The position numbers and the translations under genes were made by a program. A model generated the notes under the pieces. It had not been told where the DNA came from, made no database searches, and saw nothing but the letters and a program-made list of their open reading frames with translations. Below, in pieces: positions 36,624 to 55,356 of a stretch of DNA of 64,000 bases. The DNA lies in assembly GCA_965369655.1 (NCBI GenBank), contig CBDUQR010000001.1:64001-128000 (forward strand), given 5' to 3'. The DNA comes from an uncultured bacterium. GTDB lineage: Bacteria; Zixibacteria; MSB-5A5; JAABVY01; JAHJOQ01. The first letter of the stretch is position 1, and the number at the start of each line of letters is the position of its first letter.

Positions 36624-36750
36624 CTTCACGGCTCCAGACAGAGCACGGTGGACGGCAGACGACCCCGCAAAGTCCTGAGTCTCGAAGGGCAAGTCCTGAG
36701 CTTCGAAGGATCTGCCCCTTTTCAGTCACAGTTGAATCGGCAGATGTGGA

Positions 36751-36905
36751 GAGGTAGTCTCAAAAGTAGGTCGTGTTCCGAACACGAGACACGAGTGTGA
36801 GAAACGCGACAAATATATCTTGTTGAACTACAGTCGGGTTTCTTGCAGGCTCCGCCTGCTGCGGAACACCGACCTACTGAAGAACAGACCTTTTGGGACA
36901 GCCTC
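36751..36905. mobile_element. Non-autonomous TIR element (MITE-like) copy 1, 155 bp, TSD TGGA
   Basis: GAGGTAGTCTCAAAAG ... CTTTTGGGACAGCCTC, inserted in palindrome TCGGCAGATGT-GG-ACATCTGCCGA. Confidence 0.8.
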
Positions 36906-37019
36906 TGGACATCTGCCGAGCACGTGCTCGCAATGACAGCTTTATTTAAGTAGCTTCACTCAGTCATCCGGTGTTCAAATTCGATTGACTTCGACTGGGC
37001 GCCGCTCTACTATTCTGTT

Positions 37020-38066
37020 ATGGCTCAGGATCCGAAGAGCAAACTCGGACTGGAGGAGATGTGTGCCGCTATCGAAAAGGGCAGGATCGACCCGGTCTAT
37101 TTCCTGAACGGCAGCGAAGAGTATCTCAAGATCGAGGTGCTGGCACTGCTCCGGCGCCAGTTGTTTGGCGACGCGAAGGCTTCGGCGAATGTCGAGCGAA
37201 TAACGGCAACCTCCGGCTCAGCACAGACTATTGCAGACCTCGTGTCAGACTACTCGCTATTCAGCGGCGGGCGACTCGTGATTGTTTATGATATTCAAAA
37301 ACTATCGCCCAAGGGTCAGGAAACGCTCATCCCATCTCTGTCGTCCATACCGCAGGGCAATCATCTCGTGATCTTCGGCCCGCCATCGTTTGATCGTCGC
37401 AGGAAACTATTCAAGTACCTTGCGCAGAATACAACATGGGCAACCCTGCTGCCACTTAGCGAGAAATCCGCGCCATACTGGATCAAACGCAGGTTCAAGC
37501 AGCACGGCATTGCGATCTCTCAGCCCGCTGTCGATAAGCTGCTCAGATTCGTCGGGCATTCCTACGGCCTTCTCGCCACTCAGATCGACAAACTCGCAAT
37601 CGCATTCTCAGGCAAAGAGGAAATCGAGGTTGCAGATATCGAGAGCCATACCGCAGCCGCCGCGGAATATGACGTGTTCCGGCTTCTCAATGCTGTCGGG
37701 AAGAATGATCGTCCGAGGTCGCTCGAAGCACTCAACCGACTCCTCGAACGATCCGACGGCGTCGGTTCTGTCCTGTACTGGCTTGCCGAAACGAATTTCC
37801 AGAACTTCTACATAGAGTGCAACAAGGAGAAAATGTCGAGATCGGAGCTATCCTCTCGCCTTCGCGTTTCGCCGAAAAAACTGAATTGGCTGCTCCGCGA
37901 GTCATCCAGACATCCAGTCGGATATTACGAAGAATCCATCAGGTCGATCACCGAGGCGGAGATATCGATAAGGTTCGATCAAATTCCACCTCGGATCATA
38001 CTCGAAAGCCTGATAATTTCTCTGACGGCGCAGAACGACGGGAATAAACAAGCCGGGCGATTGTAA
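37020..38066 (+). CDS. holA: DNA polymerase III delta subunit
   Basis: PVYFLNGSEEY, SLFSGGRLVIV, IDKL, DVFRL. Confidence 0.88.
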   Translation: MAQDPKSKLGLEEMCAAIEKGRIDPVYFLNGSEEYLKIEVLALLRRQLFGDAKASANVERITATSGSAQTIADLVSDYSLFSGGRLVIVYDIQKLSPKGQETLIPSLSSIPQGNHLVIFGPPSFDRRRKLFKYLAQNTTWATLLPLSEKSAPYWIKRRFKQHGIAISQPAVDKLLRFVGHSYGLLATQIDKLAIAFSGKEEIEVADIESHTAAAAEYDVFRLLNAVGKNDRPRSLEALNRLLERSDGVGSVLYWLAETNFQNFYIECNKEKMSRSELSSRLRVSPKKLNWLLRESSRHPVGYYEESIRSITEAEISIRFDQIPPRIILESLIISLTAQNDGNKQAGRL

Positions 38067-38068
38067 GG

Positions 38069-38644
38069 ATGAAGACGGAATCGGCACGAGAGAGTCGACC
38101 TGACGAATCTGCTCTCATCGGCAAGGCAAGAAAAGGCGACAAGGAAGCTTTCTCGCAACTGGTAAGGCTGCATCAGAAGCGTATCTATTACCTCGTTTAC
38201 CGATTCTGCAGGGATCATGACGCCGCCGATGATCTTGCTCAGGAAACGTTTGTGAAGGCGTATATGGCACTCGATTCGTTTCGCGAGGAATTCAGGTTTT
38301 CGAGCTGGATTTCGACAATCGCCACAAACCTCGCGCTGAATCATCTCAGGCGTCAGAAACGCCAGGTGTCGACTGAGGATTATCCGATCGAGGAGATCAT
38401 TGCCGATCCCAACCCGGGGGCGGATCCGGCAAGGAGGCTGGCCGACAAGGAGATCATGGCCAAACTTGACGATGAAGTCGACAAACTGCCACCGGAGTTC
38501 AAGGCGGTGTTCGTGCTGAGGATGCACGAGGAACTCAGTTACGAAGATATCGCGGGAAGACTCGGCATAGAAATCGGGACTGTGATGTCGCGACTCTACC
38601 GCGCGCGGACAAGGCTGAAGAAAGCGCTGGAGGAATACCTGTGA
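38069..38644 (+). CDS. ECF RNA polymerase sigma factor
   Basis: GDKEAFSQLV, DDLAQETFVKA, FSSWI, GTVMSRLYRAR. Confidence 0.95.
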   Translation: MKTESARESRPDESALIGKARKGDKEAFSQLVRLHQKRIYYLVYRFCRDHDAADDLAQETFVKAYMALDSFREEFRFSSWISTIATNLALNHLRRQKRQVSTEDYPIEEIIADPNPGADPARRLADKEIMAKLDDEVDKLPPEFKAVFVLRMHEELSYEDIAGRLGIEIGTVMSRLYRARTRLKKALEEYL

Positions 38645-39867
38645 GCGAGATCAATCACGATCAGTTCGAGGCCTGGATAAACAGGTATCTCGACGGCGAA
38701 CTCACGGACAATGAGTTCGAGCAATATCTCCGGAGCTTCGATGCAAGTCTCGACCTTGAGAAACTCAGACTGCTGAGGACTCGCATCGAGAGGATCGAGG
38801 AGCTATACAGGCAGATCGAGGAACCGGCTGTCCCGGATGGCTACTGGGATGAGTTTGCGGATCGAGTCACCGCAAGACTTTCACCAGACACCCGGCCATC
38901 ACTGAAGGATAGAATCCTCGCTTTGTTTTCTCCCAGCCGATGGCCCAACGCAACTTACAGGTATGCTGGCGCTGTCGCATCGGTGCTGGTCGTGTTCCTG
39001 ATCGGCAAATCTTTGATGAAGAGCGGAAGCGATGAGTATATGCCACATGATTTTCCTGCGGCAATAGTTGAGCAGCTTCCACCGTCATCAAGCAAACAGG
39101 TCTCCGATGACAAACGAGGGGATATCGAAAGCGTAGTAGAAGCAGAACCTAAACAGGTGATCGAGCATGCTGAGCAGCAGGACGATGAATCAGAGCCTGT
39201 CCAGCCCGCGATATCCATAGCGTCCGAGGCACTGAAGAAATCGAGTTCGGAGATTCGCGATGAAATGACAGGCGCAGACGACATCGTGGTTGAGTCAGAT
39301 ATGGAAATCGAAACGGGTGCCGCTCAGTCCGTCGTCGAAACATCGGCACCGAGCGAATCCATAGAAGATCTCGTACCACCGTCAGTCGATGCAGTAGTAC
39401 CGCAGTCATTAACCGAAGAATCAAAGATCGAACCGCTCGCGATTTCGCTCGAAGAACCGGAGGAAAAGGTTGTTGCAGACAAGATTGAGCGGCGCTCAGA
39501 AACAGACAAATCGCTTACATATATGAAAACAAGCGCAGTTGAATCGGACATAGAGCCATCCGCCGTATCAGTGGACAGAGGACGCACTGCCTGGAATTAT
39601 GACAACTGGGATCTCGACAGCCTGCGTGCGCAACTGAGCCTATATGAAGAACTCCCGGCCGATTCATTGTCTGCAGACTCTGCGTTCATCGAGATTGCAG
39701 AAATCAAGTCGTCGATTGCGTTCATAACCCGCGACTCCACAGATGTTTACGATGCAATCTGCGCGATCGACTCACTACTTATCCACAACCCCGACGCAGA
39801 CACTCAGAGATGGACCGTGAGACGGGCGCATCTCGATAGAATCCTCGAAAATCTTAATAACAGGTAG
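38641..39867 (+). CDS. Putative anti-sigma factor
   Basis: YLDGEL N-terminus, PDGYWDEF, one TM, acidic extracytoplasmic part; 4-bp overlap with the ECF gene. Confidence 0.7.
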   Translation: MSEINHDQFEAWINRYLDGELTDNEFEQYLRSFDASLDLEKLRLLRTRIERIEELYRQIEEPAVPDGYWDEFADRVTARLSPDTRPSLKDRILALFSPSRWPNATYRYAGAVASVLVVFLIGKSLMKSGSDEYMPHDFPAAIVEQLPPSSSKQVSDDKRGDIESVVEAEPKQVIEHAEQQDDESEPVQPAISIASEALKKSSSEIRDEMTGADDIVVESDMEIETGAAQSVVETSAPSESIEDLVPPSVDAVVPQSLTEESKIEPLAISLEEPEEKVVADKIERRSETDKSLTYMKTSAVESDIEPSAVSVDRGRTAWNYDNWDLDSLRAQLSLYEELPADSLSADSAFIEIAEIKSSIAFITRDSTDVYDAICAIDSLLIHNPDADTQRWTVRRAHLDRILENLNNR

Positions 39868-39872
39868 ATTCT

Positions 39873-39900
39873 CGGGAATATTGCTCCCTCCCATTTGTAA
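39873..39900 (+). promoter_or_regulatory. Putative ECF promoter
   Basis: CGGGAATA-N14-TTGTAA; same motif and spacing at 38039-38066. Confidence 0.55.
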
Positions 39901-39934
39901 TTTTAGCAGAAGACAAATTCAATGGGAGGTCAAA

Positions 39935-42205
39935 ATGGCTCGGCTAATCTCAGCAAAACTGATCGCAATTCTCGCGGCACTGACATTTTGCAGCAATGCT
40001 TTCGGTATCATTATTGTCGAACGCAGGAACCCGAACGACAGATTCATCAGCCTCAAACAGCAGCATGTCGATGTATCGATAGTCGATGGCGTTTCTAAAA
40101 CGACAATCGAGCAGGTGTTCCACAACAGCGCCTCACGGCAACTCGAGGGAACGTATCTGTTCCCCATACCCGAAGGGGCGTCGGTCTCGAATTTCACGAT
40201 GATGATCGGCGGCGTCGAGGTCAAGGGCGAGATTCTCCCCAAGGATGAGGCTGCTCGCAAGTATCACGACATAGTCCGTCGGATGCGGGACCCCGGACTG
40301 CTCGAATACGTCGGAAAAGACCTGTTTCAGGCGCGAGTCTACCCGATTCCTCCTCACGGAGATGTCGCAATCAAAGTCCACTATCAGCAGGTGCTGCCTT
40401 ATGACAATGGTCTCGTGACATACAGGTTCACTTCTGAGGACCCGAAATTCTACAGCGCACCGATTAGGGACTACCGACTCAATATCGATATCCAGTCCAA
40501 GACCGAAATCAAGGCTGTCTATTCTCCTACGCACAATGTCGAGATCGACAGGCCGGACAATCGAAACGCGGATGTCCTTCTGACAAGAAACGACCTGTCG
40601 CGCACGAAGGATTTCGTGCTCTACTACACTGTGTCCAACAAGGATTTCGGGCTGAGCCTGTTGACATATTTCGATCCGGATGAGAAACAGGGCTATTTCG
40701 TGGGACTGATCGCTCCGGATCTTGCGCAGAGCGAAAAGACGCGAACACAGAAGAACGTACTCTTTGTTCTCGATGTCTCAGGATCGATGTCGGGCGAGAA
40801 GATCGAACAGGCGAAACAGGCTCTACAGTTCTGTCTCAATTCTCTCGACAGGAACGACCGTTTCTCGATAGTCAGCTATTCGGATATTGTAGATCGATTC
40901 TCCGACAGGATGATTCCGGCGACGCGCGACAACATAAGAAATGCACAGCAGTATGTCGACCGGCTAAGGGCTGCCGGAGGGACTGACATAAACGGAGCGC
41001 TCACTGAGGCAATGTCAATCGAGGGCGCGAGGGCGTATGCCGACTATATTATCTTCCTCACCGATGGTGAGCCGACTGTCGGCGAGACGAATCCGAAGAG
41101 GATCGCCGAGAATATCAGGGCGGCGAATATCAACAATTGGAAAGTCTTCTGCTTCGGCGTTGGGTATGATGTCGATGTTGACCTTCTCGATCAACTCGCG
41201 TCAGATTCCAGAGCGGTAGCATCATACGTCAGGCCGGGCGAGGATGTCGAGGTCAAGGTATCGAACTTTTTCGCGAAGATCTCTAATCCAGCGATGACCG
41301 GGATCAGACTCGTCTGCGATGACAACAGGTTGTCACAGGTGTTTCCTCGCAACCTGCCCGATCTTTTCTATGGCATGCAATTGGTCATTGCCGGCAGGTA
41401 CGACAATCCGGGCGGCGCGACAATCAGGCTCGAAGGTTTCGTGCAGGGCAAACCCAAGACATACACATACAGTGTCGAGTTGTCAGGTCGCGAGGGCGAC
41501 GACGAACTGATCCCGCGTCAGTGGGCGATCAGGCGAATCGGCTTCCTGCTCGAAGAGATCAACGGCGGCGGTGAGAATATCGAACTGAAAGAGGAGATAG
41601 TCAGGCTGTCGAAGAAATACGGCATCGTGACGCCGTACACATCGTTCTTCGTGGATGAGCCCGCGCGCCAGTTCTATTCAAATGGCGCTGATATTCGGCG
41701 AGACATTATGGAGATGTCCAAACCGACAAATAACGTTGTAATTGCAGACAAGATGGCTCTTCCCTATGGGGAGAGAAAGAAAGCAGCCGTGGACCATTCG
41801 CAGTTCTTGACGACAATGTCGGGAAAGTCAATAATCGTTGAAACGGATGAGTTTATCCCGCAGGACGGTGAAGCTGGCTCGTATGCACCCGCCACTGCAT
41901 TGGAAGAACAGGTGGCAGCGCAGGTCGGTTCGGCCAGACTCCGGCGACTAATCACGATCGGTGACAGGACATTCCAGAGAATCGGTAACGTCCTGTACGA
42001 CAGCAAGCTCGATGGTTCACAGGAGATATTCAAGATCATGATGTTCAGCGATGCATATTTCGAGCTGCTCGAATTGCGTCCTGAGATCGGCAAGTATCTT
42101 ACGACTGGCGACGAGATCATACTTGCCGTCGGCGATATCGCAATCCATTTCAGCGAGGAGGGCGACGACACACTAAGCGACAAAGTGAAACAACTGGTAA
42201 GCTGA
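39935..42205 (+). CDS. VIT and VWA domain secreted protein
   Basis: Signal peptide; EQVFHN..LEGTYLFP; DVSGSM MIDAS, GGTDI, FLTDG; IVTPYTSF. Confidence 0.93.
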   Translation: MARLISAKLIAILAALTFCSNAFGIIIVERRNPNDRFISLKQQHVDVSIVDGVSKTTIEQVFHNSASRQLEGTYLFPIPEGASVSNFTMMIGGVEVKGEILPKDEAARKYHDIVRRMRDPGLLEYVGKDLFQARVYPIPPHGDVAIKVHYQQVLPYDNGLVTYRFTSEDPKFYSAPIRDYRLNIDIQSKTEIKAVYSPTHNVEIDRPDNRNADVLLTRNDLSRTKDFVLYYTVSNKDFGLSLLTYFDPDEKQGYFVGLIAPDLAQSEKTRTQKNVLFVLDVSGSMSGEKIEQAKQALQFCLNSLDRNDRFSIVSYSDIVDRFSDRMIPATRDNIRNAQQYVDRLRAAGGTDINGALTEAMSIEGARAYADYIIFLTDGEPTVGETNPKRIAENIRAANINNWKVFCFGVGYDVDVDLLDQLASDSRAVASYVRPGEDVEVKVSNFFAKISNPAMTGIRLVCDDNRLSQVFPRNLPDLFYGMQLVIAGRYDNPGGATIRLEGFVQGKPKTYTYSVELSGREGDDELIPRQWAIRRIGFLLEEINGGGENIELKEEIVRLSKKYGIVTPYTSFFVDEPARQFYSNGADIRRDIMEMSKPTNNVVIADKMALPYGERKKAAVDHSQFLTTMSGKSIIVETDEFIPQDGEAGSYAPATALEEQVAAQVGSARLRRLITIGDRTFQRIGNVLYDSKLDGSQEIFKIMMFSDAYFELLELRPEIGKYLTTGDEIILAVGDIAIHFSEEGDDTLSDKVKQLVS

Positions 42206-42223
42206 CATATCCTCCGGGCTATG

Positions 42224-42251
42224 AAGGGCGCCTCAATCAGGCGCCCTTTTT
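42224..42251 (+). terminator. Intrinsic terminator
   Basis: AAGGGCGCCT-caatc-AGGCGCCCTT-TTT. Confidence 0.85.
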
Positions 42252-42286
42252 GTTATTGACATCGAATCGCCGCCGGTTATTATTCA

Positions 42287-43033
42287 ATGTGTATGATTGT
42301 TTTCAAAGTTCTTCAAATCGCACTGCTGGTTCTGATCGCAATGTTTAACTTCGCTTCTGCAGAAAGCGACTCGGTGTTCTATTCGCCGGACTCTGACTCG
42401 TACAAAACAGAGCGACTTCAGATGGTCAGGAAGCAGATCGAATCGCGTGGTGTGACAGATGAGAAAGTCCTCGAAGCGATGCGGACTGTGCCAAGGCATC
42501 TTTTCGTACCCCGCTCGCATATCAAGCTTGCATACAGCGATGGCCCGCTCCCGATCGGACACGATCAGACGATCAGCCAGCCGTATATCGTCGCGCTGAT
42601 GACCGAACTACTCGAACTCGAAGGGGGAGAGCGTGTGCTGGAAATTGGCACGGGGTCAGGCTATCAAACAGCAGTGCTGGCCGAAATAGTCGATACAGTC
42701 TACTCGATTGAGATCATCTGTGAACTGACAAAGAGCGCGCAGGAGATTATTGATAAGCTCGGATACAGCAACACCCTGATCCGTTGTGCAGACGGCTACA
42801 GAGGAATACCTGATGCCGCGCCGTTTGACCGGGTGATCGTCACCGCCGCGCCGGACCATATCCCTGATCCATTGATTGAACAGCTCAGCGTCGGCGGGAA
42901 GATGGTGCTGCCGGTTGGTGATTTCTATCAGGAACTTGTAGTTGTCGAGAAGACCAAAGATGGCGTCATAAAGAAGAGATCGATCCCGGTCCGGTTCGTA
43001 CCGATGACCGGTGAAGCACAGGATAAAAAGTAG
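42287..43033 (+). CDS. pcm: Protein-L-isoaspartate O-methyltransferase with an N-terminal hydrophobic leader
   Basis: VPRHLF, QTISQP, VLEIGTGSGYQ, APFDRVIVTAA, VRFVPM. Confidence 0.95.
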   Translation: MCMIVFKVLQIALLVLIAMFNFASAESDSVFYSPDSDSYKTERLQMVRKQIESRGVTDEKVLEAMRTVPRHLFVPRSHIKLAYSDGPLPIGHDQTISQPYIVALMTELLELEGGERVLEIGTGSGYQTAVLAEIVDTVYSIEIICELTKSAQEIIDKLGYSNTLIRCADGYRGIPDAAPFDRVIVTAAPDHIPDPLIEQLSVGGKMVLPVGDFYQELVVVEKTKDGVIKKRSIPVRFVPMTGEAQDKK

Positions 43034-43042
43034 GAGGTCGTT

Positions 43043-43222
43043 ATGTTTCTCGGATTCCTTCTGGTCATTCTTGGCGCGATCTTCCTTCTCCGCAATATGG
43101 GTATCCTTCCATTCTGGTACGGCTGGAGCGAACTCTGGCCGGTCCTTCTGATAGCACTCGGACTCGCCATGGTCGGCGACAGCATCTTCAAGAAATCGAA
43201 GAAGAAAAATAAGCCGGAATAA
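43043..43222 (+). CDS. Small 2-TM protein (DUF5668/LiaF-TM-like), not in the ORF track
   Basis: RBS AGGAGG; MFLGFLLVILGAIFLLRNMG...ELWPVLLIALG...KKSKKKNKPE. Confidence 0.85.
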   Translation: MFLGFLLVILGAIFLLRNMGILPFWYGWSELWPVLLIALGLAMVGDSIFKKSKKKNKPE

Positions 43223-43299
43223 CCTATAGGTGGTGCGCTCAAGCTGTGATTGGGTTTGCATTCCTACGCCAAGGTGTGGACCGCAGGTATTTACGCGAG

Positions 43300-43875
43300 T
43301 TAGGCAATCATGGAACCAGACATGCACGTGTCAACAATCTCATGCCAGTCGCTGCATCGGACAAACCTACCTTGCGCATTAATGGAATGGTTCCACGGTG
43401 CATCAAGAAGGCATGATATATCTGCGAAATCGGATGCTGCAATAACCTCTCTAAGATCATCGTCAATAACAACTTCAGCCATAGGATATAGGTCAGATTT
43501 ACTTGCTACTGTGGAATGGCTTTCATGCAAAGACATGAACGCATGAAAGTCAAGCCCATTGTCGCGAAGCCACTTCTTTGTTTTTGAGTGGAGAGATATT
43601 GGTCTGCTGGTAGCAACAACGATACGAAACTTCGTCGCAAGTTTTTCCAATCCCTCAGCAGCTCCTTCGACCAATTGCATTTTCGAATAATCAAGTCGTT
43701 GAAATACCTTTTTGAAATCACTTTCTTTGACTCCTACAACCCTATCGATTTCGAACATCCGAATGTCGGTTCTGTTCAGATTGCAGTCATAAAGACTATT
43801 AATAACAGGGATTGCAGAACCTACAAGATCACAGATGACACCATCAACGTCTACCACTATGACTTTTCTATCCAT
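43300..43875 (-). CDS. HAD-superfamily 5'(3')-deoxyribonucleotidase (NT5C-like)
   Basis: Motif I VDVDGVICD, motif II ATSRP, motif IV IDDD, APWN. Confidence 0.88.
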   Translation of the reverse strand: MDRKVIVVDVDGVICDLVGSAIPVINSLYDCNLNRTDIRMFEIDRVVGVKESDFKKVFQRLDYSKMQLVEGAAEGLEKLATKFRIVVATSRPISLHSKTKKWLRDNGLDFHAFMSLHESHSTVASKSDLYPMAEVVIDDDLREVIAASDFADISCLLDAPWNHSINAQGRFVRCSDWHEIVDTCMSGSMIA

Positions 43876-43892
43876 CGAACCTAGCCCCGTAT

Positions 43893-44483
43893 CTAATTGA
43901 CGATGTACTTAATAACGAGCACTGAGACTATTGGTATTCCATAGAACAGGATGACCAGCCTTTTGGCTGCTGGCGGGTGAACGACTCTGCTTATGCTAGT
44001 AGTCAGGCCAAAGAGACCAAACCTCTTTCCTAAGTCCGACTCGTCGAACTTCAAGGCCTGCGCCACCGAACCTAGGAGAAGTTGGTGATAATAGAAGTAG
44101 TCCATTACGAAGGCTATTGCCCATAGGATTAGTAGGAGGAAAAAGAAAATGAGAAAATGCTCCTCGTTAATCTTCTCGGCCTTCTGTAAAGCCACGCTTG
44201 CCCCTACTAACGTTATGAAAGCTGTCAGGACAATGGACCGAAACCGTATAATCAGATCATTGAAGTGCATTTGCGTCTCAATGATGGTTTTCCATTCTGT
44301 TTGGTAAAGCGGGATTACTGCCTTTTCCTGATCTGAAATATCCGGGACCGGATATGGCAACCTATTAACCGGCGTATCCTTACCTTTACTCTTACCTTTG
44401 CCAACTACAATGCGATCAATTGTAATAACAATTGCGGTGTAAATGATTACAAGAAGAATAAGAACAGGTATCGATATTGTCAC
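43893..44483 (-). CDS. Multi-TM membrane protein
   Basis: Likely GTG start at 44483 after GAGGGAG; QMHFNDLIIRFR helix followed by TMs; AT-rich. Confidence 0.75.
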   Translation of the reverse strand: MTISIPVLILLVIIYTAIVITIDRIVVGKGKSKGKDTPVNRLPYPVPDISDQEKAVIPLYQTEWKTIIETQMHFNDLIIRFRSIVLTAFITLVGASVALQKAEKINEEHFLIFFFLLLILWAIAFVMDYFYYHQLLLGSVAQALKFDESDLGKRFGLFGLTTSISRVVHPPAAKRLVILFYGIPIVSVLVIKYIVN

Positions 44484-44750
44484 AACCTTCTCCCTCAAAG
44501 TGATTGTGTTGTGTGCATCAGACAGACAACTCAAACAGTTTCGATCCGCACAAAGTCAGTCACGCGGTTGTTCCAGCCCGACTACTATTGATTCGCAACT
44601 TAATGTAAACTAATGCATTTCGAAGCACTAAGTCAATCACAAAACGCAATAGGGCCGGGTGCAATCATCCGGGGTGCTTTTTGAAAAATTCAAACTGATC
44701 GCCATACTACAGTCCAGTAGCCCAGTAGCGCCTCACTCCTGCGTAACAAA

Positions 44751-44889
44751 TAGCAGGTGTCGAGGACACCTGCTCTACAAGAACTGTGACAGATACTGAG
44801 ATCGCCACGTCGCTCCGCTCCTCGCGATGACACCGCCCGCTCTCGGCGGTCGCAAGAACTGCCGGAACGGACGCTTTGGGAACAACCTC
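44751..44889. repeat. REP cluster plus a solo right end of the TIR element
   Basis: Hairpin AGCAGGTGTC-GA-G-GACACCTGCT; GAGATCGCCACGTCGCT..CTCGCGATGAC; 44831-44889 aligns with 54339-54396. Confidence 0.7.
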
Positions 44890-44967
44890 CTCCGTACCCC
44901 ATCGCGGAAAAGCATCGAATCTGCTTGACAATTACCGCGCCATTTGTATCATTGGCTGCCGTATCTG

Positions 44968-45531: not shown

Positions 45532-45533
45532 CC

Positions 45534-45578
45534 ACCCTGCTTTCTCGACGCGAGAAGGCCGGAAGACCGGAGGGAGGT
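45534..45578 (+). promoter_or_regulatory. S6:S18 ribosomal protein leader (autoregulatory RNA)
   Basis: CCCTGC-TTTCTCG-acg-CGAGAAG-GC-CG..AGACC..GAGGGAGG immediately upstream of rpsF; CCCT can pair with the RBS. Confidence 0.65.
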
Positions 45579-45581
45579 TTC

Positions 45582-45920: not shown

Positions 45921-45992
45921 TCCGTTTAGCCGCATGGCGCACATCGGCGTCTGCAGGGAAATTCAAATTCAAATATTGGGAGAGTCATAGTT

Positions 45993-46238: not shown

Positions 46239-46245
46239 GGAAAGG

Positions 46246-47208: not shown

Positions 47209-47263
47209 AATATCCCTTTGCTATGAACAACAAGAGTGCGTACATATAGAGAGGTGAATTCAG

Positions 47264-47710
47264 ATGAAAGTGATTTTGAGAGAAGATATGGATAATCTCG
47301 GCAAATGCGGGGATATCATAGAGGTCAAGAACGGGTTCGGGCGGAACTACCTGCTGCCTCGCAACCTGGCCATTCCGGCGACTAAGGGAAACCTGAAGTC
47401 TATAGGCGAGGTCACGGCGCAGAAAGAGCTCCGTGATAAGAAATACCGCAGGGAAGCCGAAAGAATCAAAGATCGCATCGAGAGAATCTCCTGTACCGCC
47501 GAGGTCAATGTTGGCGAAGAGGATAAGATGTTCGGATCGATAACGTCGGCCATCATCGTCGGTTTGCTCAAAGAGGAAGGCGTCGAGATCGATCGTCGCA
47601 AGATCATGCTCGATGAACCGATCAAGAACCTGGGAGTCTACACAATTCCGGTGAAGATAGCTCCGGATGTTGTCGCTAATCTCAAACTCTGGGTGGTCAA
47701 GAAGAGTTGA
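47264..47710 (+). CDS. rplI: 50S ribosomal protein L9
   Basis: MKVIL..LGKCGD..VKNGFGRNYLLP, KMFGSIT. Confidence 0.97.
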   Translation: MKVILREDMDNLGKCGDIIEVKNGFGRNYLLPRNLAIPATKGNLKSIGEVTAQKELRDKKYRREAERIKDRIERISCTAEVNVGEEDKMFGSITSAIIVGLLKEEGVEIDRRKIMLDEPIKNLGVYTIPVKIAPDVVANLKLWVVKKS

Positions 47711-48219
47711 CGTCGGACAACGAAGAAAAAGTCGATTTGGTGGAAGTGAGCGTTAACGGGCTTGCTCTGGATGTCACCACCAACTCGCCGGTCGTGTTGC
47801 TCGGACCTGTGAATTCCGAGAAGGTCTTGCCGATCTGGATCGGCCACTATGAAGCGTGGGCGATTGCCATGGAGATGTCAGGCATGCCGTCAAAGAGACC
47901 TATGACGCACGACCTTCTCAGGACGGTGATAGAAGGTCTAAAGGCAGAGGTCGTCAGGGTTGAGATATTCGATCTCAAGGATCAGACATTCTACGCGCGG
48001 GTTATCTTAAGAAATAACGGGAACGAACTCGATATCGATGCGCGGCCTTCGGATTCGATAGCCCTTGCGCTCAAGGCAAAGGCTCCAATCTTCGCCAACC
48101 CCAAGTTGTTCGACCTGAAGCAGCCTCCTTCGGACAGCAAGCAAGCTGCAGATCCGCAGGAACTCAAGGATCGCCTGAAAAGGATCAATCCAGAGGACTT
48201 CGGCAAGTACTCCCTCTGA
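47707..48219 (+). CDS. Bifunctional nuclease family (DUF151)
   Basis: LPIWIG..EA, RPMTHDL, DARPSDSIALAL. Confidence 0.93.
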   Translation: MTSDNEEKVDLVEVSVNGLALDVTTNSPVVLLGPVNSEKVLPIWIGHYEAWAIAMEMSGMPSKRPMTHDLLRTVIEGLKAEVVRVEIFDLKDQTFYARVILRNNGNELDIDARPSDSIALALKAKAPIFANPKLFDLKQPPSDSKQAADPQELKDRLKRINPEDFGKYSL

Positions 48220-50003
48220 TGGATTTCATCGTGTGCAAGGTACGGAGTCAGACAGTCACCATTCTGATGGCATTGTTCGCACTGATTGCAGCCGGTACGC
48301 CGGTCTCACTTGGCTTGGACCTCCCGGCTCAGATTGAGCATGCCGAATCGCTGTTTCGCTCCGGAGACTACGGCAAGGCAGCAGAGGTATTCGCCGAGAT
48401 CGCTGCTCTCAGCCCGAGTTACGAGGGACTTCCCGCGCTGCTTCTGAAAGAAGCAAGAGCCAGATATTACGCCCGGCAATATGCCAGGTCCGAAAATGTC
48501 CTCCAGCGCTTGATATCAGAATTCAGAGATTCTCCATATGTTTCCTCCAGTTACTATTTCCTTGCCAGGATCGATTTCGACAGATCCGACTACCGGCGAG
48601 CGACGGCGAACTTCGTCTCGGCCCATCATTATGCGTCGGGCAGAAGGCTGAAAGATATTTGCCGGGCAAATGTTGTCAATATGCTGGTCGGCTATCTCTC
48701 GTATGCGGAGCAGAAATCAATTCTGTCGGCGTGCCACCGACTCGACAAGAGACTGTTCAGCAGCGCAATATATGATGCCTCGATGAGATTCAGCGAACTC
48801 GGTCTGGATACGCAGGCCGAAAGGATGCTTGACATCTACGCCGCATTCGAGCGGGATGGTGATCCGCGATTCGAAACGCTCCGGAATGAACTGCGGTCAG
48901 GATTGCCGCGCTCGATCGACATAGCGCTGCTATTCCCCCTTTCCGGCGAACTTGCAGCTTACGGGAGACAGATGAATTCAGCCGTTGAGCTGGCTGTCGA
49001 GGCATACGACGATGTGACAATCAATTTGAAGACGTACGATACGTTCGGTAACTCGATAGTCGCAGCGCAGCTTGCGCAGCGAGCCACAGCCGAGGGTGTG
49101 TCGGTCGTGCTCGGTCCGCTGACCTCGCAGGAGGCTGTCGGAGCCGTACCGTATTCCGACTTCTGGTCCGTCCCGATGGTCCTTCCTGTCGCGTCCGAAA
49201 AAGGTCTGACATCCATATCGAAGATGACATATCAGCTCTCGCCCACTCCTGAGGCCATGGGAGAAAGACTCGCGGAGGCAGCCATAGAGGAACTCGGACT
49301 CGATTCCGTCGCGATTCTCGCTCCGAATGACGGCTACGGCAGACAGATGACGGATGGTTTCAAGCGAGTGATGAAGAAGAATCAAGTAGATATCTTTAGT
49401 GAAGTCTACTATCCGCGCGGCGCGACCGACTACCGGAGATTCATGCTGGACCTGAAGAAGACAGTGTTGCCGGATACTTTCGACCCCAGGATCTTCCTCG
49501 ATGAGGAGGGTGATACACTTGAACTCGAAGAGATCGATGTTCAGATACCGGCAATCTTTATTCCCGCTTTTGCTGAAGAACTGCGTTACATTATCCCGCA
49601 ATTGCGCTTCTATCGCATTGGGTCAATCCTTCTCGGAGGCGAGGACCTCGGGAACGATGAAGTTCTGTCGCTGAAAGCTACTAAACTTTTCCCATCGATG
49701 TTCGTGTCGCACACGACTTTCACGCCATCTGACACGGCATGGATCAAGTTCGAGTATCTGTTCAGACAAAAGAACGGCCGAGAACCCACTTCCGTTGCCG
49801 GCATGACGTACGACGCAGTCTGCATGACGCTCGAAGCCGCTGCGCTCGGCGGGTTCACTGCCGACGGAATCGTGCGCGGCTGGGAGCGGCTCGGTCGCTA
49901 CGATGGCGTTACCGGTCCGTTTGAATTCAATGATCAGCGCGAGAATGTGGCGGCGCCGGTCTATTTCCTGCTTGATGGACAGATCGAGAAATGGCTGCAC
50001 TGA
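48219..50003 (+). CDS. TPR plus periplasmic-binding-fold protein (LpoA/LppC-like)
   Basis: N-terminal TPR-like helices; IALLFPLSG, VLGPL, YDGVTG.FEF. Confidence 0.75.
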   Translation: MDFIVCKVRSQTVTILMALFALIAAGTPVSLGLDLPAQIEHAESLFRSGDYGKAAEVFAEIAALSPSYEGLPALLLKEARARYYARQYARSENVLQRLISEFRDSPYVSSSYYFLARIDFDRSDYRRATANFVSAHHYASGRRLKDICRANVVNMLVGYLSYAEQKSILSACHRLDKRLFSSAIYDASMRFSELGLDTQAERMLDIYAAFERDGDPRFETLRNELRSGLPRSIDIALLFPLSGELAAYGRQMNSAVELAVEAYDDVTINLKTYDTFGNSIVAAQLAQRATAEGVSVVLGPLTSQEAVGAVPYSDFWSVPMVLPVASEKGLTSISKMTYQLSPTPEAMGERLAEAAIEELGLDSVAILAPNDGYGRQMTDGFKRVMKKNQVDIFSEVYYPRGATDYRRFMLDLKKTVLPDTFDPRIFLDEEGDTLELEEIDVQIPAIFIPAFAEELRYIIPQLRFYRIGSILLGGEDLGNDEVLSLKATKLFPSMFVSHTTFTPSDTAWIKFEYLFRQKNGREPTSVAGMTYDAVCMTLEAAALGGFTADGIVRGWERLGRYDGVTGPFEFNDQRENVAAPVYFLLDGQIEKWLH

Positions 50004-50836
50004 CCGCCGACCTTCGGCGCAAATATGATTCCCTGATCGAATTGATCTCCACTCTCGAAAGGGTGGTAGTCGCCTTCTCCGGAGGACTCGATTCCGCATT
50101 CGTCCTGTACGCATCGCTTCAATCGCTCGGATCGGACAATGTGCTGGCGGTGACAGGCGATTCACCGAGTCTCGCACGATTCGAGAAAGAGTGCGCTGCG
50201 CGATTTATGCGCTCGCTCAATATTCGCAAACGTCACCTGATTATCGACACCAACGAGATGCAGGATGAAGGCTATATAGCTAATACAATCGATCGCTGTT
50301 TCTACTGCAAGAATGAGCTATATTCGAAACTCGTCGGTATAGCGAATCAGGAGGGGTTCAGTTGTGTGGTCGATGGCTGTAACGCCTCTGACATCGGCGA
50401 TCACAGACCTGGAAGACGGGCTGCCGAGAAATTCTCGGTGAGAAGTCCGTTACTTGAAGTCGGACTGCATAAACCCGAGATCAGAGAGATCGCCCGGCAT
50501 GAGGGTCTCGAAATATGGGACAAGCCCCAGACCGCCTGCCTCGCATCAAGAATTCCATACGGAGAGATTGTGACAGCCGATAAACTATCGATGATCGAAA
50601 AAGCTGAGGCGTTTCTCCGTGAGAACGGTTTCCGCCAGTTGCGGGTGCGCCACCACGGCAAATTAGCCAGAATCGAGCTTGAAGAGCAGGGCTTTGAGTT
50701 GATGACCGATGCTGCAATCAGGAAACGCATCGTCGATCGATTCAGAGATATTGGATTTACGTGGATATCCGTTGATCTCAAGCCCTTTGAAACAGGAAGC
50801 ATGAACATCTCAATAAAGGACTCAGAGAGTGACTGA
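49991..50836 (+). CDS. larE: LarE-family ATP-dependent sulfur transferase
   Basis: AFSGGLDS, DRCFYCK, DHRPG, ACLASRIPYG, LRVRHHG. Confidence 0.92.
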   Translation: MAALTADLRRKYDSLIELISTLERVVVAFSGGLDSAFVLYASLQSLGSDNVLAVTGDSPSLARFEKECAARFMRSLNIRKRHLIIDTNEMQDEGYIANTIDRCFYCKNELYSKLVGIANQEGFSCVVDGCNASDIGDHRPGRRAAEKFSVRSPLLEVGLHKPEIREIARHEGLEIWDKPQTACLASRIPYGEIVTADKLSMIEKAEAFLRENGFRQLRVRHHGKLARIELEEQGFELMTDAAIRKRIVDRFRDIGFTWISVDLKPFETGSMNISIKDSESD

Positions 50837-51071
50837 CAATGAAAAGGAGAAGCGCGTCGCGCTGAAGATGGTTATTGACGGCGAAATCCGCGAGATTTCG
50901 TTCGAAGAGCTGGCTCTCTCGAACAACATGGCTCAGGAGGCGCTCGTCAGACTGATGGTGCGTAAGAAAATAATCGAACCGCGCGAATTCATGGAGGAGA
51001 TGAACGCCGTCCAGAAAGAAAGGTACCGTTCAGGCGACCCGTCTGACGAAGGCCAGACCCCCAACGCGTGA
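50829..51071 (+). CDS. Small hypothetical protein (80 aa)
   Basis: Overlaps the larE stop; helical, protein-like composition. Confidence 0.7.
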   Translation: MTDNEKEKRVALKMVIDGEIREISFEELALSNNMAQEALVRLMVRKKIIEPREFMEEMNAVQKERYRSGDPSDEGQTPNA

Positions 51072-51106
51072 ACCAGACGACGAATATGATCAGACCAGGA
51101 GAGGGA

Positions 51107-51142
51107 ATGTTGAAGGAATCATTTCGGACACATACCTGCGGG
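51107..51142 (+). pseudogene. aspS: Aspartyl-tRNA synthetase-like N-terminal stub
   Basis: RBS AGGAGAGGG then MLKESFRTHTCG (AspS RTHTCG motif), cut by the REP at 51146. Confidence 0.55.
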
Positions 51143-51145
51143 ATC

Positions 51146-51250
51146 GTCATCACGAGGAGCGGTAGCGACGTGGCGATCTCAGGCTCCAGTACTGTGGGTG
51201 GCAGACGTCCTTGCAGAGTCCTGAGCCTCGAAGAGTCTGCCCCATTTTCG
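51146..51250. repeat. REP cluster
   Basis: GTCATCACGAGGAGCG..CGACGTGGCGATCTC, then GGCAGACG..GTCCTGAGCCTCGAAG..TCTGCCCC, homologous to about 36630-36725. Confidence 0.75.
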
Positions 51251-51270
51251 CTTGCATCGGCAGATGTCCA

Positions 51271-51469
51271 GAGGCTGTCCCCAAAGTGCCACTCAACTTG
51301 AGCGGAAAGCTGACCCTGTCGCTCCCGCGAAGGCGGGAGCCTATTTAACGATTACCCATTCAATAGATTCCCGTAATATCCTGAGCACAGCGAAGGGCCT
51401 GTGCGGGAATGACCTCGCTTTCTTTCGCAAGCATGAACACCAACCTATCAGACCTTTTGGGACAGCCTC
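51271..51469. mobile_element. Non-autonomous TIR element copy 2, 199 bp, TSD TCCA
   Basis: GAGGCTGTCCCCAAAG ... CTTTTGGGACAGCCTC inside TGCATCGGCAGATGT-CC-ACATCTGCCGATGCA. Confidence 0.85.
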
Positions 51470-51586
51470 TCCACATCTGCCGATGCACAGAATTCGGTAA
51501 TGTTTAGTGTGGGGCAACTCGCCTTTTTCAATCTGCAGCAACAGATGATTTGACAGGTCATTGATGGTCTGTATATTGATGACCTT

Positions 51587-53788
51587 ATGGCGCCACTGAT
51601 CGACAGGATGCGGACGGAACTGAACGATAGGCAGTTTGAAGCCGCAACTACGGTAGATGGTCCGCTTCTTATCCTTGCCGGAGCCGGTTCTGGCAAGACG
51701 CGGGTTCTGACCTATCGTGCCGCTTATCTTGTGTCCGACCGTGCCGTATCTCCCTTCAATATCCTGGCCGTGACTTTTACGAACAAAGCTGCCAGCGAGA
51801 TGAAAGAACGGATGGAGACGCTTGTCGGTCAGGCGGTGAGAGATATGCAGGTGTCAACCTTTCATTCGTTCTGTGTCAGGATACTCCGGCGATACGGCGA
51901 CAGGTGCGGGCTTCCTCGCGATTTCTCGATATACGATCAGGAAGATTCCCTGAATCTGATACGGCACTGCATGGAGGATCTGCTCATATCGCCGAAGTCG
52001 CATCCACCGAAAGTGATCCGTGAGTTTATTTCATCCGCAAAGGACAAACTGATAGGACCCGATCAGTACGCCGAATCAGCGAAGGCGTATTTCAACAAGG
52101 TAGTGGCCAATGTATATGAATCGTATCAACGGCGGTTGGAAGTTGCCGCTGCGCTCGATTTCGACGATCTGCTCTGCAAGGCGGTCAGATTGCTTCTGGA
52201 TCATCCGGAACTGCTCGAACAGATGCAGAATAGCTACAGATATATCATGGTCGATGAGTATCAGGACACGAATCATGTGCAGTATCTGCTCGTGAAAAAC
52301 CTCGCAGCACGCGACCGGAATATTTGCGTGGTCGGCGATGACGATCAGTCGATATACGGATGGCGCGGCGCGGAGATCAGAAACATCCTCGAATTCGAAA
52401 AGGACTTTCCGGGTTGCAGCGTGGTCAAGCTCGAACAAAACTACAGATCGACTAAGACCATACTCAAGGCTGCATCTAGCGTCGTCGGGAACAACCAATC
52501 CCGGAAATCGAAGACTTTGTTTTCCGAGGGTGACGAGGGCGACAAGATCACTCTGCTGGTTGCAGACAATGATCGCGGCGAAGCGGAGATGGTCGCCGAC
52601 AAGATCGAAGGATTAATCTCTGCTGATCGATTCGGTCGCAGGGAGATAGCGATTCTCTACAGGACTAACGCGCAGTCCCGCGCACTCGAAGAGACGCTCA
52701 AGAACCGTTTCATACCTTACACGATTGTCGGCGGGCTGAGATTCTACCAGCGCAAAGAAATCAAGGATGTGATGGCGTATCTCAAGGTGATGACCAACCC
52801 TCACGATCTGATTTCACTCAGGCGCATAGTCAACACGCCCCCACGCGGTCTCGGCAAAGTTGCGCTCGCGAAAATCGAGAACATAGCGGTCAAAAAGAAG
52901 GTCGGGCCGATTCAATTGATACTGGATGACGACGATTATCTGTTCCTGCCAGGCAGGGCGAGAACCGGCTTGCGCCAGTTTGCAGTTATTCTGAGAACTC
53001 TCGTGACCGCAAAGGACGAAAAGGATCCAGTCGAATTGGTGAAGACTGTCATAGAGCATAGTGAAATACTGCGCGAGATCGACAATGGTGACGCCATTGA
53101 AGCAGAATCGCGGCGAGAAAACCTTGATGAACTGGTGGCGGCGGTCGATGAATTCTGCCAGCGCAACGAGGATGCGACTATCGAATCGTTCCTCGAAGAG
53201 GTATCGCTCTACACCGACATAGACCAGTGGGACAACTCCATCGATTCCGTTACGCTGATGACGCTGCATTCCGCCAAGGGACTCGAATTCCCCGCTGTAT
53301 TCATCACCGGACTCGAGGAAGGTCTGTTTCCATTGGCGAAGTCGCTCGAAAGCGATGCGGAACTCGAGGAGGAGCGCAGGCTTTTCTATGTCGGCATTAC
53401 CCGCGCCGAGAAGCTGCTGTTTATCGCGCACGCGAAAACGCGTCGGCGGTTCGGCGACATGCTCACGCTCGAATCGCGTTTCATATCGGAGCTGCCCGCC
53501 GATGTCGTCGAGATTGAGGAGAAGCTCTACACGCCTCGCGCTGTGTCGCATCGTTCATACCTGTCCAGCGAATCAAAGGTGACATCGTTCGATTCGGACA
53601 CGGTTGATCCTGACGATACATACAGCTATCTGGAGGTCGGTCGATGGGTCACGCATCCAACCTGGGGAGACGGCAGGATTATCGCACGGCGCGGTACATC
53701 AGACTCGACCGAGATCGACGTCATGTTTGAATATGTAGGCCGCAAGAAACTACTCGCCCAATATGCGAACTTGCAGGTGAAAGAGTAA
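51587..53788 (+). CDS. pcrA: ATP-dependent DNA helicase PcrA/UvrD
   Basis: AGAGSGKT, VDEYQDTN, LEQNYRST, TLHSAKGLEF, EEERRLFYVGITRA, C-terminal Tudor-like domain. Confidence 0.96.
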   Translation: MAPLIDRMRTELNDRQFEAATTVDGPLLILAGAGSGKTRVLTYRAAYLVSDRAVSPFNILAVTFTNKAASEMKERMETLVGQAVRDMQVSTFHSFCVRILRRYGDRCGLPRDFSIYDQEDSLNLIRHCMEDLLISPKSHPPKVIREFISSAKDKLIGPDQYAESAKAYFNKVVANVYESYQRRLEVAAALDFDDLLCKAVRLLLDHPELLEQMQNSYRYIMVDEYQDTNHVQYLLVKNLAARDRNICVVGDDDQSIYGWRGAEIRNILEFEKDFPGCSVVKLEQNYRSTKTILKAASSVVGNNQSRKSKTLFSEGDEGDKITLLVADNDRGEAEMVADKIEGLISADRFGRREIAILYRTNAQSRALEETLKNRFIPYTIVGGLRFYQRKEIKDVMAYLKVMTNPHDLISLRRIVNTPPRGLGKVALAKIENIAVKKKVGPIQLILDDDDYLFLPGRARTGLRQFAVILRTLVTAKDEKDPVELVKTVIEHSEILREIDNGDAIEAESRRENLDELVAAVDEFCQRNEDATIESFLEEVSLYTDIDQWDNSIDSVTLMTLHSAKGLEFPAVFITGLEEGLFPLAKSLESDAELEEERRLFYVGITRAEKLLFIAHAKTRRRFGDMLTLESRFISELPADVVEIEEKLYTPRAVSHRSYLSSESKVTSFDSDTVDPDDTYSYLEVGRWVTHPTWGDGRIIARRGTSDSTEIDVMFEYVGRKKLLAQYANLQVKE

Positions 53789-54195
53789 TTGGCAAGGACC
53801 ACTGTGCGTCCAGAGAAGATACAGTGAATAGGCATACAAGATCGGCGAAGGTGATATCCCGTTCAGTTTGGAGAGAGAACACTCTCGGCAATGCTCAGAG
53901 GATATTCGGATTGGTTGAATCCAAACCCTTTAGCTCGGCCAGATCAGGATGAACCCTATACCTCAGCACGCCGTCAATTGCAGTGGTATGTTCTGCTACA
54001 GCTTTGTATTCAGTTATCAATCGATCAAGAGCTGAAGGAACTCGCATCGTCCGTTCGACGATTGAACATCCTTTCCTCGGCGACATCCACACGATTTCCT
54101 CCCGGTACCTCCCCTGCGAAGGAGAAACACATGGATAACGGTAATCATCTCCCAATGGAACCCAACGAGGTCGTACCGTGGGTGGCAGATGTCCA

Positions 54196-54396
54196 GAGGT
54201 TGTCCCATAAGGTAGTTTCGACGGGTCTTGGCGACGACGGAGTCGTCGGTGTGACCTGACGATCTTCTGTAAGCTGTTGCCAGGCATTGCTTCCATTTTC
54301 CGGCAGTTCATCGGTCGCTGATCCCGATCCCTGAGGGACACGTCCGCCTTCGGCGGACGCAAGAACAGCCGGAATGGATGCTTTTGGGACAGCCTC
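54196..54396. mobile_element. Non-autonomous TIR element copy 3, 201 bp, TSD TCCA
   Basis: GAGGTTGTCCCATAAG ... CTTTTGGGACAGCCTC inside TGGCAGATGT-CC-ACATCTGCCA. Confidence 0.85.
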
Positions 54397-54469
54397 TCCA
54401 CATCTGCCAAAATTGTCAATCCGAATTCGATTCAGAGCATGGAATTCAATTGGTCTGTCTCGGAAGGTG

Positions 54470-55288
54470 TTATTCACTGTAAGCTGTAGCATCGTAGTGA
54501 TTATAATGGTCTTGATTTACCAGCTTGGATTTCTTAAGTAACTGAAAAAGCCCGAACTTCTCAACATAAGCCTTCAATTCTCTGTAGTTAGGTGTAAGGC
54601 AATAATAGAATATCATGTATTTCTCATCATCAGAAATCTGCGCTCTAACGAGAGTTGCGTAGAACTCCTTGTCGACAATGCTACTCCGATCAACAAACCA
54701 CAATAGATGATAAAGGGTCTTGAAGTAATTGGATATGTCAAGCGGAAACCCACTCGAGAATTGGTTATGAGCTATCTCCAGAAGTTTCGTATCATCTGAG
54801 ATTGAGGGTCCCATTTTTCGTACTGTATCATCATATTTCCATCGAAAACGACTGTACCATTTGTTGAAACAAGCCTTTCCTTTCAAGCCCTCACTTCGAT
54901 CCTCCAAATTCCGAACCAACTCATTAAACAAATCCATCAATTGAAAAAAAGTGTTCTCGAACTGCTGAAGACTAAGGGTTCTATTCTGCAACTGCATTTG
55001 CTCTCTTTGACCCTGAATCTCATTTCGTGTTAGCTTGAGTTCTTTCCGCTGCAAATGTAGATCTTGTCTCTGTAGATATATGGCGTAAATGAAGCCAGCA
55101 AATGCAAGTGCGGTGAAGAGCGCATTCGCTGCACCAAACATGTCCCCGAACTGGCCTCTATACGGCCAATCTTCGGGCATAAAATGAATAACTGCCACCC
55201 AGTTGCTGAGCCAGATTAGGATTGCTACGACAAGCAATAGTGGTAGCAGCCACCTCTTTTCATTCTTCAACTCATCCTGGCTATCCAT
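54470..55288 (-). CDS. Putative phage abortive infection protein
   Basis: GQFGDMFG.ANALF TM segment, QQFENTFFQL, YFKTLYH, RAQIS..E, VEKFGLF; AT-rich. Confidence 0.85.
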   Translation of the reverse strand: MDSQDELKNEKRWLLPLLLVVAILIWLSNWVAVIHFMPEDWPYRGQFGDMFGAANALFTALAFAGFIYAIYLQRQDLHLQRKELKLTRNEIQGQREQMQLQNRTLSLQQFENTFFQLMDLFNELVRNLEDRSEGLKGKACFNKWYSRFRWKYDDTVRKMGPSISDDTKLLEIAHNQFSSGFPLDISNYFKTLYHLLWFVDRSSIVDKEFYATLVRAQISDDEKYMIFYYCLTPNYRELKAYVEKFGLFQLLKKSKLVNQDHYNHYDATAYSE

Positions 55289-55320
55289 GACAATCTCCTA
55301 TCCAGTATTGAAGTCTTTTG

Positions 55321-55356
55321 CTGTGAGCGGCAGATGTGGACATCTGCCGTGCACAG
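55321..55356. repeat. Empty target palindrome of the TIR element
   Basis: CTGTG..CGGCAGATGT-GG-ACATCTGCCG..CACAG. Confidence 0.85.

Follow-up and report, generated by a model that had tools for sequence, protein, structure and literature searches.

The three short elements in the window (the whole stretch of 64,000 nucleotides that we analysed) are very probably MITEs of type II (ends-only) that belong to an IS1182 clade targeting hairpin loops, with interiors that stem from REPIN-bearing founders and lengths that are helically phased. The family consists of non-autonomous IS1182 derivatives, as its terminal inverted repeats (TIRs), its target and its duplication are the same as those of autonomous elements. 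In what follows, G000 denotes the assembly holding the window, G001 and G003 the genomes of relatives, and L-numbers loci from relatives or metagenomes.

The elements, here called A, B and C, were found at exactly the coordinates given in an earlier note on this DNA, together with the 16-bp TIRs and the 4-bp duplications described there (Table 1). The note was also right that they are non-autonomous and that no transposase lies within the window. The right TIRs of A, B and C are exact and the left ones have 3, 1 and 2 mismatches, respectively; allowing at most three mismatches, the TIR 16-mer gave 9 matches in the window compared to 0.42 expected by chance, and 0 of 100 shuffles reached 9. The three interiors are mutually unrelated, as had been noted, with no alignment between them and a best cross-match of E 0.074. 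A search of positions 36000-56000 against Rfam gave 0 matches. Table 1 also lists a C-type end and two target hairpins with small inserts, which the earlier note had overlooked.

Table 1. Elements and target REPs in the window, with their parts
Feature	Coordinates	Strand	Details
Partner target REP of head-to-head dimer	36648..36716	+	without MITE; small hairpin inserts interrupt the loop
Filled target REP around MITE A	36737..36927	-	stem arms on both sides; GTG tag on minus strand
MITE A target loop, duplicated	36747-36750 + 36906-36909		TGGA
MITE subfamily A	36751..36905	.	155 bp; TIRs 36751-36766 + 36890-36905
MITE A interior	36766-36877		GTAG...CTAC REP doublet, then 12-bp spacer
Truncated subfamily-C right end	44834..44889	-	single TIR 44874-44889 + half REP doublet
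Partner target REP	51194..51241	+	without MITE; small insert in loop; a like REP in G001 apparently occupied by a B-type element (tentative, 79% identity)
MITE B duplication	51267-51270 + 51470-51473		TCCA
MITE subfamily B	51271..51469	.	199 bp (175-bp core + 24-bp insert at 51374-51397); TIRs 51271-51286 + 51454-51469
MITE B interior	51318-51413		CGTC-type REP doublet
MITE C duplication	54192-54195 + 54397-54400		TCCA
MITE subfamily C	54196..54396	.	201 bp (173-bp core + 28-bp insert at 54311-54338); TIRs 54196-54211 + 54381-54396
MITE C interior			REP heterodimer, same class as REPs flanking the RAYT gene at G000:C37
Empty target REP, GTG-tagged	55323..55354	.	8-bp core stem 55329-55336/55341-55348, loop TGGA 55337-55340; among the 68 empty copies in G000

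Each interior proved to be a multi-copy subfamily of fixed length, which contradicts the earlier view that the elements are unlike an ordinary MITE family. The ends are paired in 60 elements across G000, 22 belonging to A (155 bp), 32 to B (175 or 199 bp) and 5 to C (173 or 201 bp), and the A, B and C interiors gave 34, 22 and 11 BLAST matches covering at least 60%, self included. The duplication is exact over 4 bp in 35 of the 60 and has at most one mismatch in 42; it should be underlined that the other 18 lack a matching duplication, which counts against our explanation. The elements are short and multi-copy, have TIRs and a duplication and lack a transposase, all of which are traits of type II MITEs. 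The 24-bp (B) and 28-bp (C) inserts are probably later additions. In none of the 32 B elements do both REPs contain the 24-bp insert, and the 199-bp forms of B may therefore themselves move. In G001, all 19 paired elements recovered were B-type.

With regard to the insertion site, the proposal that the landing site is a REP hairpin was borne out, insertion duplicating the four loop nucleotides of a GTG-tagged REP hairpin. Once the element and one duplicate are taken out, GGCAGATG-loop-CATCTGCC is restored, in agreement with the empty site at 55329-55348. This restored site has an 8-bp stem closed by a 4-nt loop and is not the perfect palindrome first described. At least 7 of the 8 stem pairs were present around the duplicated 4 nt in 22 of 42 elements, as against 9 of 20000 random sites. 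"One palindrome" is nevertheless too strict, since the loop comes in several variants and hairpins with at most 4 of 8 stem pairs hold 11 of the 42 duplication-bearing elements. Empty target copies with at least 7 of 8 stem pairs number 68 in G000 (0 in 3 shuffles); 67 of them have the GTG at a distance of 6 nt from the stem, and 15 head-to-head dimers occur. In the tag, GTG is followed by G or C and does not always fit GT[AG]G. Element orientation showed no bias relative to the REP tag (10 same, 12 opposite).

No clean empty orthologous allele, of the kind the earlier note called for, was seen in the reads of four runs or in G001. The read search covered contigs only, with three of the runs from one study (run X4, share 0.06, was left out), and says nothing on the absence of empty alleles because contigs break at repeats. 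Of 14 sites compared by eye in the strongly diverged G001, none formed a clean filled/empty pair, and the two genomes had one insertion in common; G001 otherwise offered an A/B swap and a filled/empty pair that is tentative.

Intact IS1182 elements that share these 16-bp ends are inserted in this hairpin too, both in relatives and in metagenomes; the metagenome loci were picked by a target-plus-end pattern, whereas the loci of further relatives at 42-73% identity, which have the same ends, were not. The earlier suggestion of IS1182/IS5-type ends thus holds as IS1182 family membership, these intact elements carrying identical ends. L173 (1541 bp) has perfect TIRs, a 470-aa ORF scoring 330 bits against NF033551 (cut-off 270), and lies in a hairpin of the same type. 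L316 (1552 bp; TCCA, in an identical target) and L347 (1629 bp; AGGA) also pass NF033551, and in both the 4-bp loop of the REP that the MITEs use is duplicated exactly. Among two-ended IS judged by eye, the duplication was exact in 4 of 11 and had one mismatch in 2 more. The full IS with these ends that the earlier note suggested looking for is thus present in relatives and metagenomes but was not found in G000 (99.5% complete, 100 contigs), where tblastn with the L173 protein recovered only 30-34% fragments of other elements. Matches to PF13751, PF05598 and PF01609 in G000 were likewise rejected as the cognate transposase, being fragments with other ends. The cognate transposase is present in G003, of the same family as G000. 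Multi-copy IS often remain unassembled.

Across many related bacteria, the TIR-to-TIR lengths of the clusters peak every ~10.4 bp (153, 164, 174, 184 and 195 bp). For 33 clusters the phasing gave R 0.64 at 10.5 bp, which 0 of 5000 jitter nulls reached, and 9 new clusters held out at the pre-set phase were equalled by 21 of 20000 nulls; significance was taken from jitter nulls only. A first hold-out comprised 2 new clusters only, and the loosest clustering leaves 3 hold-out clusters, which are not significant alone. The 199-bp form of B, the commonest B length in G000 (20/32), is off-phase, and 19 clusters that share the 16-mer but come from other phyla were unphased (2226/10000 nulls). A need for the two ends to come together on a single face of the helix would be expected to produce such a periodicity.

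The interiors were said to be made of REP-like hairpins, and they are indeed REP doublets, unalignable to an IS body. One could argue that each subfamily is a type I MITE, i.e. an internal deletion of its own unsampled IS1182 parent with REP hairpins near its ends. Deletion is the usual origin of MITEs according to the parts of a review used here (Minnick, PMC10969869), and the IS bodies sampled were 12 only. We nevertheless regard this as unlikely, since 183 interiors gave no real match to these 12 IS1182 bodies (a single 27-nt match, E 0.006), a result that also speaks against one ancestral IS body, the alternative named in the earlier note. Moreover, subterminal IS DNA is unstructured (folding z < -2 in 26 of 34 cluster representatives versus 0 of 12 IS subterminal controls), and family medians show no clear retention of it in the MITEs (p 0.03-0.38). 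In favour of a deletion origin, one B copy out of 37 elements scored resembles the IS left end over 10 nt past the TIR (p 0.004). The only long elements sharing MITE interiors, L324 and L353, were rejected as parents, consisting of an IS110 gene nested in a MITE.

The pack-type capture envisaged in the earlier note, in which the ends repeatedly take a nearby REP and carry it to a landing pad, would account for one end type being common to 42 mostly hairpin-rich interior clusters (among 123 small elements), for full-length interiors without either TIR (A 6/37, C 9/22, B 7/51) and for the orthologous holA site holding A in G000 and B in G001. Per copy, however, it is largely refuted: 59 of the 60 paired elements in G000 belong to three fixed families, the paired elements recovered from G001 are all B-type, and some TIR-free copies, in which remnants of the flanks persist, may be MITEs in decay. 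We consider it very improbable, surviving only as rare founder capture. A "target core nearby" flag for the TIR-free copies was dropped (background 31%), and minimal TIR-TIR elements of 30-63 bp, sought as capture precursors, were absent from G000. Each interior being multi-copy and of fixed length, capture would therefore be rare, founding a family that then amplifies as ordinary MITEs do. Least credible of all is that RAYT moves the REP doublet as the mobile unit, with the TIRs as passive relics. G000 does hold five Y1/RAYT matches, one flanked by C-type REPs, and TIR-free doublets exist, but it is the tips of the TIRs, and not the REP tags, that are bordered by the duplications and target stems, and the phasing concerns TIR-to-TIR length across unrelated interiors; movement by RAYT may explain the TIR-free copies only.

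Links between interiors and RAYT loci are consistent with REPINs as a source of type II MITE interiors. RAYT-flanking REPs were matched by 6 of 42 clusters (0 in 10 shuffles), the C cluster matching the flank in L007 (E 2e-10) and an A-like cluster that in L265 (E 2e-9); the other 36 had no match among 28 RAYT loci, and the B doublet is CGTC-type by motif. Two RAYT genes with REPs sit just inside an IS1182-type end, one (L280) without a clear second TIR or duplication and the other (L298) without a left end. In a small sample of 28 RAYT-like ORFs in 480 loci, none was flanked by the target REP. A-like doublets have a total length of 154-155 bp, the offsets from end to tag being 0/11-12 (G000, L480) or 3/20 (L477, L351), and a metagenome scan for the TIR plus the family-A start gave 0 matches.

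Starting from the observed ends, duplication, target and cognate IS, we propose that an IS1182 DDE transposase, probably supplied in trans, would bind both 16-bp ends, bring them together and join them either side of the 4-nt loop of the GTG-tagged REP hairpin, so that the loop is duplicated; the substrate may be an extruded hairpin or cruciform. The interiors would be REP doublets (REPINs) of REP classes other than that of the target, having entered between the ends in rare founding events. The most likely course, at roughly even chances, is that a REPIN or REP-RAYT-REP unit nests in an IS or MITE and the remainder is deleted. While the length periodicity is observed, its helical-face cause is presumptive: founders with both ends on the same face (~153, 164, 174, 184, 195 bp) would synapse best and amplify into fixed-length subfamilies, A, B and C presumably being three of these. 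More tentatively, and with somewhat less than an even chance, there may be a standing hand-over in which HUH (RAYT)-made REPINs are repeatedly taken up between IS1182 ends via nested REP-RAYT-REP units, the DDE enzyme spreads them into the loops of another REP, and a helical-phase filter picks the captures that amplify. If so, dozens of unrelated families would bear the record of a helical-twist experiment done by nature on a single transpososome.

Hairpin-targeting IS1182, IS in REPs and type II MITEs sharing only their ends with an IS were already known. Added to this are REP doublets, many times founded, as a source of type II MITE interiors, which blurs the REPIN/MITE divide and would give REPINs a RAYT-free route of spread, and a ~10.4-bp period in the lengths of natural MITEs. 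The latter leads to a prediction on IS1182 synapsis that is sharp and cheap to test, and could flag transposition-competent lengths. The intact transposases have a defined hairpin target of 20 bp, which makes them candidates for a structure-guided insertion assay. In the literature searched, mostly open-access, we found no description of ~10-bp length periodicity in bacterial MITEs and no paper combining IS1182, REP and MITE.

A close relative is IS1272 (Wan et al. 2017, PMC5678879), which, in the sections of that paper drawn on here, shares the transposase family NF033551, ~16-bp IRs and hairpin targets; loop-only duplication corresponds to pathway c of its Fig. 13, and Siguier et al. are cited there for palindrome-targeting IS1182 members. 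IS1272 is described as deleting the stem-loop at targets without a common sequence, whereas the IS1182 MITEs here duplicate the loop, have one REP family as their main target and are mostly gene-less. Insertion at the REP symmetry axis with a short duplication is likewise reported for IS1397, ISPsy8, ISRm22, ISPpu9/10 and IS621 (Tobes & Pareja 2006, PMC1525189; Delihas 2011, PMC3184786), and hybrid copies with unmatched repeats occur in ISRm22 (3/9) as here (18/60). In the portions of these two papers considered, the REP-targeting IS are autonomous and belong to the IS3, IS110, IS4, IS256 and IS5 families, IS1182 and MITEs not being among them.

Type II MITEs, as characterised in the part of PMC10969869 used, resemble autonomous IS in their TIRs only, as do ours, which differ in their REP-doublet interiors, in combining a single end type with 42 interior clusters and in their helical-step lengths. 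Both target and cargo are tagged hairpins in head-to-head dimers, like the GTAG-/CGTC-tagged REP dimers or REPINs associated with RAYT (PMC3733652, PMC3337134, PMC6006769, bioRxiv 2021.07.10.451892), and the B REP matches a Neisseria REPIN 21-mer from this literature. There, in the excerpts relied on, Di Nocera et al. are credited with REP dimers inside longer palindromes in three species, and REPINs are set apart from MITEs, whereas here REPINs lie inside DDE-type MITE ends. Finally, Paramecium IES (Arnaiz et al. [quoted passage not shown] They are excision units of a ciliate, and the bacterial helical-twist experiments cited in that paper used engineered constructs, whereas the periodicity described here is that of natural bacterial MITE families.

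All three window elements are present as the earlier note described them, with their terminal inverted repeats (TIRs), 4-bp duplications and the empty site (Table), and all are intergenic: one upstream of holA, one upstream of pcrA and one downstream of pcrA. Right-hand element junctions were also found in public-run contigs (X2 record 9, X1 records 7 and 8), runs X1–X3 coming from one study and X1 possibly being the source. The observation is real, and the interpretation given in the earlier note was right in part. A genome-wide end search of the source genome, G000, gave 60 paired elements, and a further 39 ends with at most two mismatches lacked a partner. The paired elements belong to interior families B (32), A (22) and C (5), plus one 64-bp oddity. 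Named Zixibacteria records share family C. Pairwise identity in aligned subsets was 75–100% for A (14 copies) and 77–93% for B (6 copies), some B copies being 99% identical to each other. The window interiors seemed unrelated because the window has a single copy of each family.

Reconstruction of the target by removing an element and one duplicate stands, but the supposed perfect palindrome consists of an 8-bp stem closed by a 4-nt loop; in the window elements it is this loop that was duplicated at insertion. The targeted hairpin is a GTG-tagged REP, present in G000 as 68 empty copies, with 15 head-to-head dimers; three shuffles gave no matches. The duplication was exact in 35 of the 60 paired elements and had at most one mismatch in 42; around these 42, at least 7 of 8 stem pairs formed in 22 and at most 4 in 11, the random-site background for at least 7 pairs being 9 in 20000.

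Among 285 phylum genomes, 82 contain the 16-bp TIR, whereas its reversed-sequence control gave three matches in total. At locus L173, one TIR pair 1541 bp apart encloses a 470-aa IS1182 transposase and is inserted in the same hairpin type. This transposase has matches in 24 of the 285 genomes, and the closer matches (42–73% identity) have the same ends, often adjoining the same hairpin. Metagenome contigs chosen by the target-plus-end pattern yielded four further IS1182 copies, and in two of these the loop duplication is exact. The full IS with these ends that the earlier note had suggested looking for was found in phylum relatives and metagenomes, but not in G000; an L173-type transposase had no match in G000 or in G001, a relative of the same genus.

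Interior A is a GTAG...CTAC doublet directly against one TIR, B a CGTC-type doublet, and C a heterodimer. The C motif is present 69 times in G000 versus 0–1 in shuffles, and it flanks the RAYT (REP-associated transposase) gene at contig C37 on both sides. Relatives and metagenomes gave 123 distinct small elements in 42 interior clusters, which fell to 33 and 20 when the threshold was loosened. A comparison of 183 interiors with 12 IS1182 bodies gave a single weak match. More structure than in shuffles was seen in 26 of 34 cluster representatives versus 0 of 12 IS subterminal controls. Six of the 42 clusters match flanks of 28 RAYT-like ORFs (shuffles 0 in 10), and the remaining 36 have no match to these flanks. 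Two RAYT genes with their own REPs sit immediately inside an end, each with one clear end only; the L280 unit (Table) is a possible capture intermediate. TIR-free full-length interiors also exist, and could be either source or decay product of the MITEs.

Two further end types in G000 likewise enclose REP doublets, and the ends-plus-REP architecture therefore recurs; one has 11 pairs, a few of which are fragments of IS elements or chance pairings, the other 14 copies of a 123–135-bp element. Duplication-free inserts of 21–28 bp (also about 80 bp) lie in REP hairpin tips at many G000 sites, and at joins of unrelated IS fragments (C5, C13, C15). Loci from other phyla (L068, L083, L095, L106, L118, L130) hold 41–48-bp TIR-to-inverted-TIR hairpins, mostly without duplications.

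Elements and associated features (window positions unless a genome, contig or locus is named)
Feature	Position	Observation
Element A	36751-36905	155 bp
Element B	51271-51469	199 bp
Element C	54196-54396	201 bp
Empty target REP	~55329-55348	
Small inserts	51374-51397, 54311-54338, 36660-36712, 51212-51235	
ORFs of 272 and 676 aa	54470-55288, 55365-57395	no NCBIfam match; empty REP between
CGTC-type hairpin fused to truncated C end	44797-44832	very high depth in 4/4 runs
Second IS1182-like end type	G000 C13:15306-16256, C62:1606-1801, C51:14106-14373 and others	in CGTC- and C-type REP loops without duplication, also inside B elements; carries CGTC-type doublets
135-bp MITE with other ends	G000 C1:77035-77169 and 13 more	CTAG-like 4-bp duplications in 13/14; REP doublet resembles those beside Y1 match at G000 C23
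IS1182 end, 4 nt, REP-RAYT-REP-REP unit	L280:1243-1930 (G003:C139, same family)	poor second end, other type
Y1/RAYT domain	L004 (G000:C23:20496-20732)	inside 1072-aa open frame
IS110 transposase genes	L324:484-1916, L353:1909-3486	nested in 162-164-bp MITEs of this end type

G001, about 79% identical to G000, carries B upstream of holA, where G000 carries A. After larE, the REP that B occupies in G001 is apparently the partner REP, orthology being tentative at this identity. Fourteen further G001 sites gave one shared insertion (B, 176 bp), the rest being too diverged to call, and the empty allele was not seen in public-run contigs, which break at the repeats.

Element lengths were phased. With one modal length for each of 33 clusters of 110–240 bp, which are not wholly independent (a 273-bp cluster was left out), R was 0.64 at 10.5 bp, the best period was 10.3, and 0 of 5000 jitter nulls reached this R; the loosest clustering (16 clusters) gave 1 of 5000. 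At fixed phase, nine hold-out clusters (seven from searches over 137–198 bp, plus other collected material) gave 21 of 20000 nulls and seven at a looser threshold 83 of 20000; the three at the loosest threshold were not significantly phased. Two results run counter to phasing: it did not appear in 19 other-phyla clusters with the same TIR, mostly lacking 4-bp duplications, and 20 of the 32 B copies in G000 are 199 bp. The 199-bp form is the 175-bp element with 24 bp inserted into one or the other REP, and both forms occur among nearest neighbours, which is consistent with later insertion. G001 copies of B are 175–176 bp in 16 of 19. By the helical-twist argument presented in PMC3464196, the periodicity would reflect a looping constraint on the element.

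None of the papers listed by the literature searches describes REPINs inside IS1182 MITEs, or bacterial MITE lengths that follow the helical repeat; recurrent REPIN founders and a testable length periodicity are the main value of these results. Wan et al. (PMC5678879) model IS1272 as attacking a cruciform, with a loop-only duplication drawn as one outcome. The 18 elements with unmatched duplications often join two like target halves, for which mis-assembly may be a source. The same pattern is seen in ISRm22, where Tobes and Pareja (PMC1525189) explain it by recombination or adjacent deletion.
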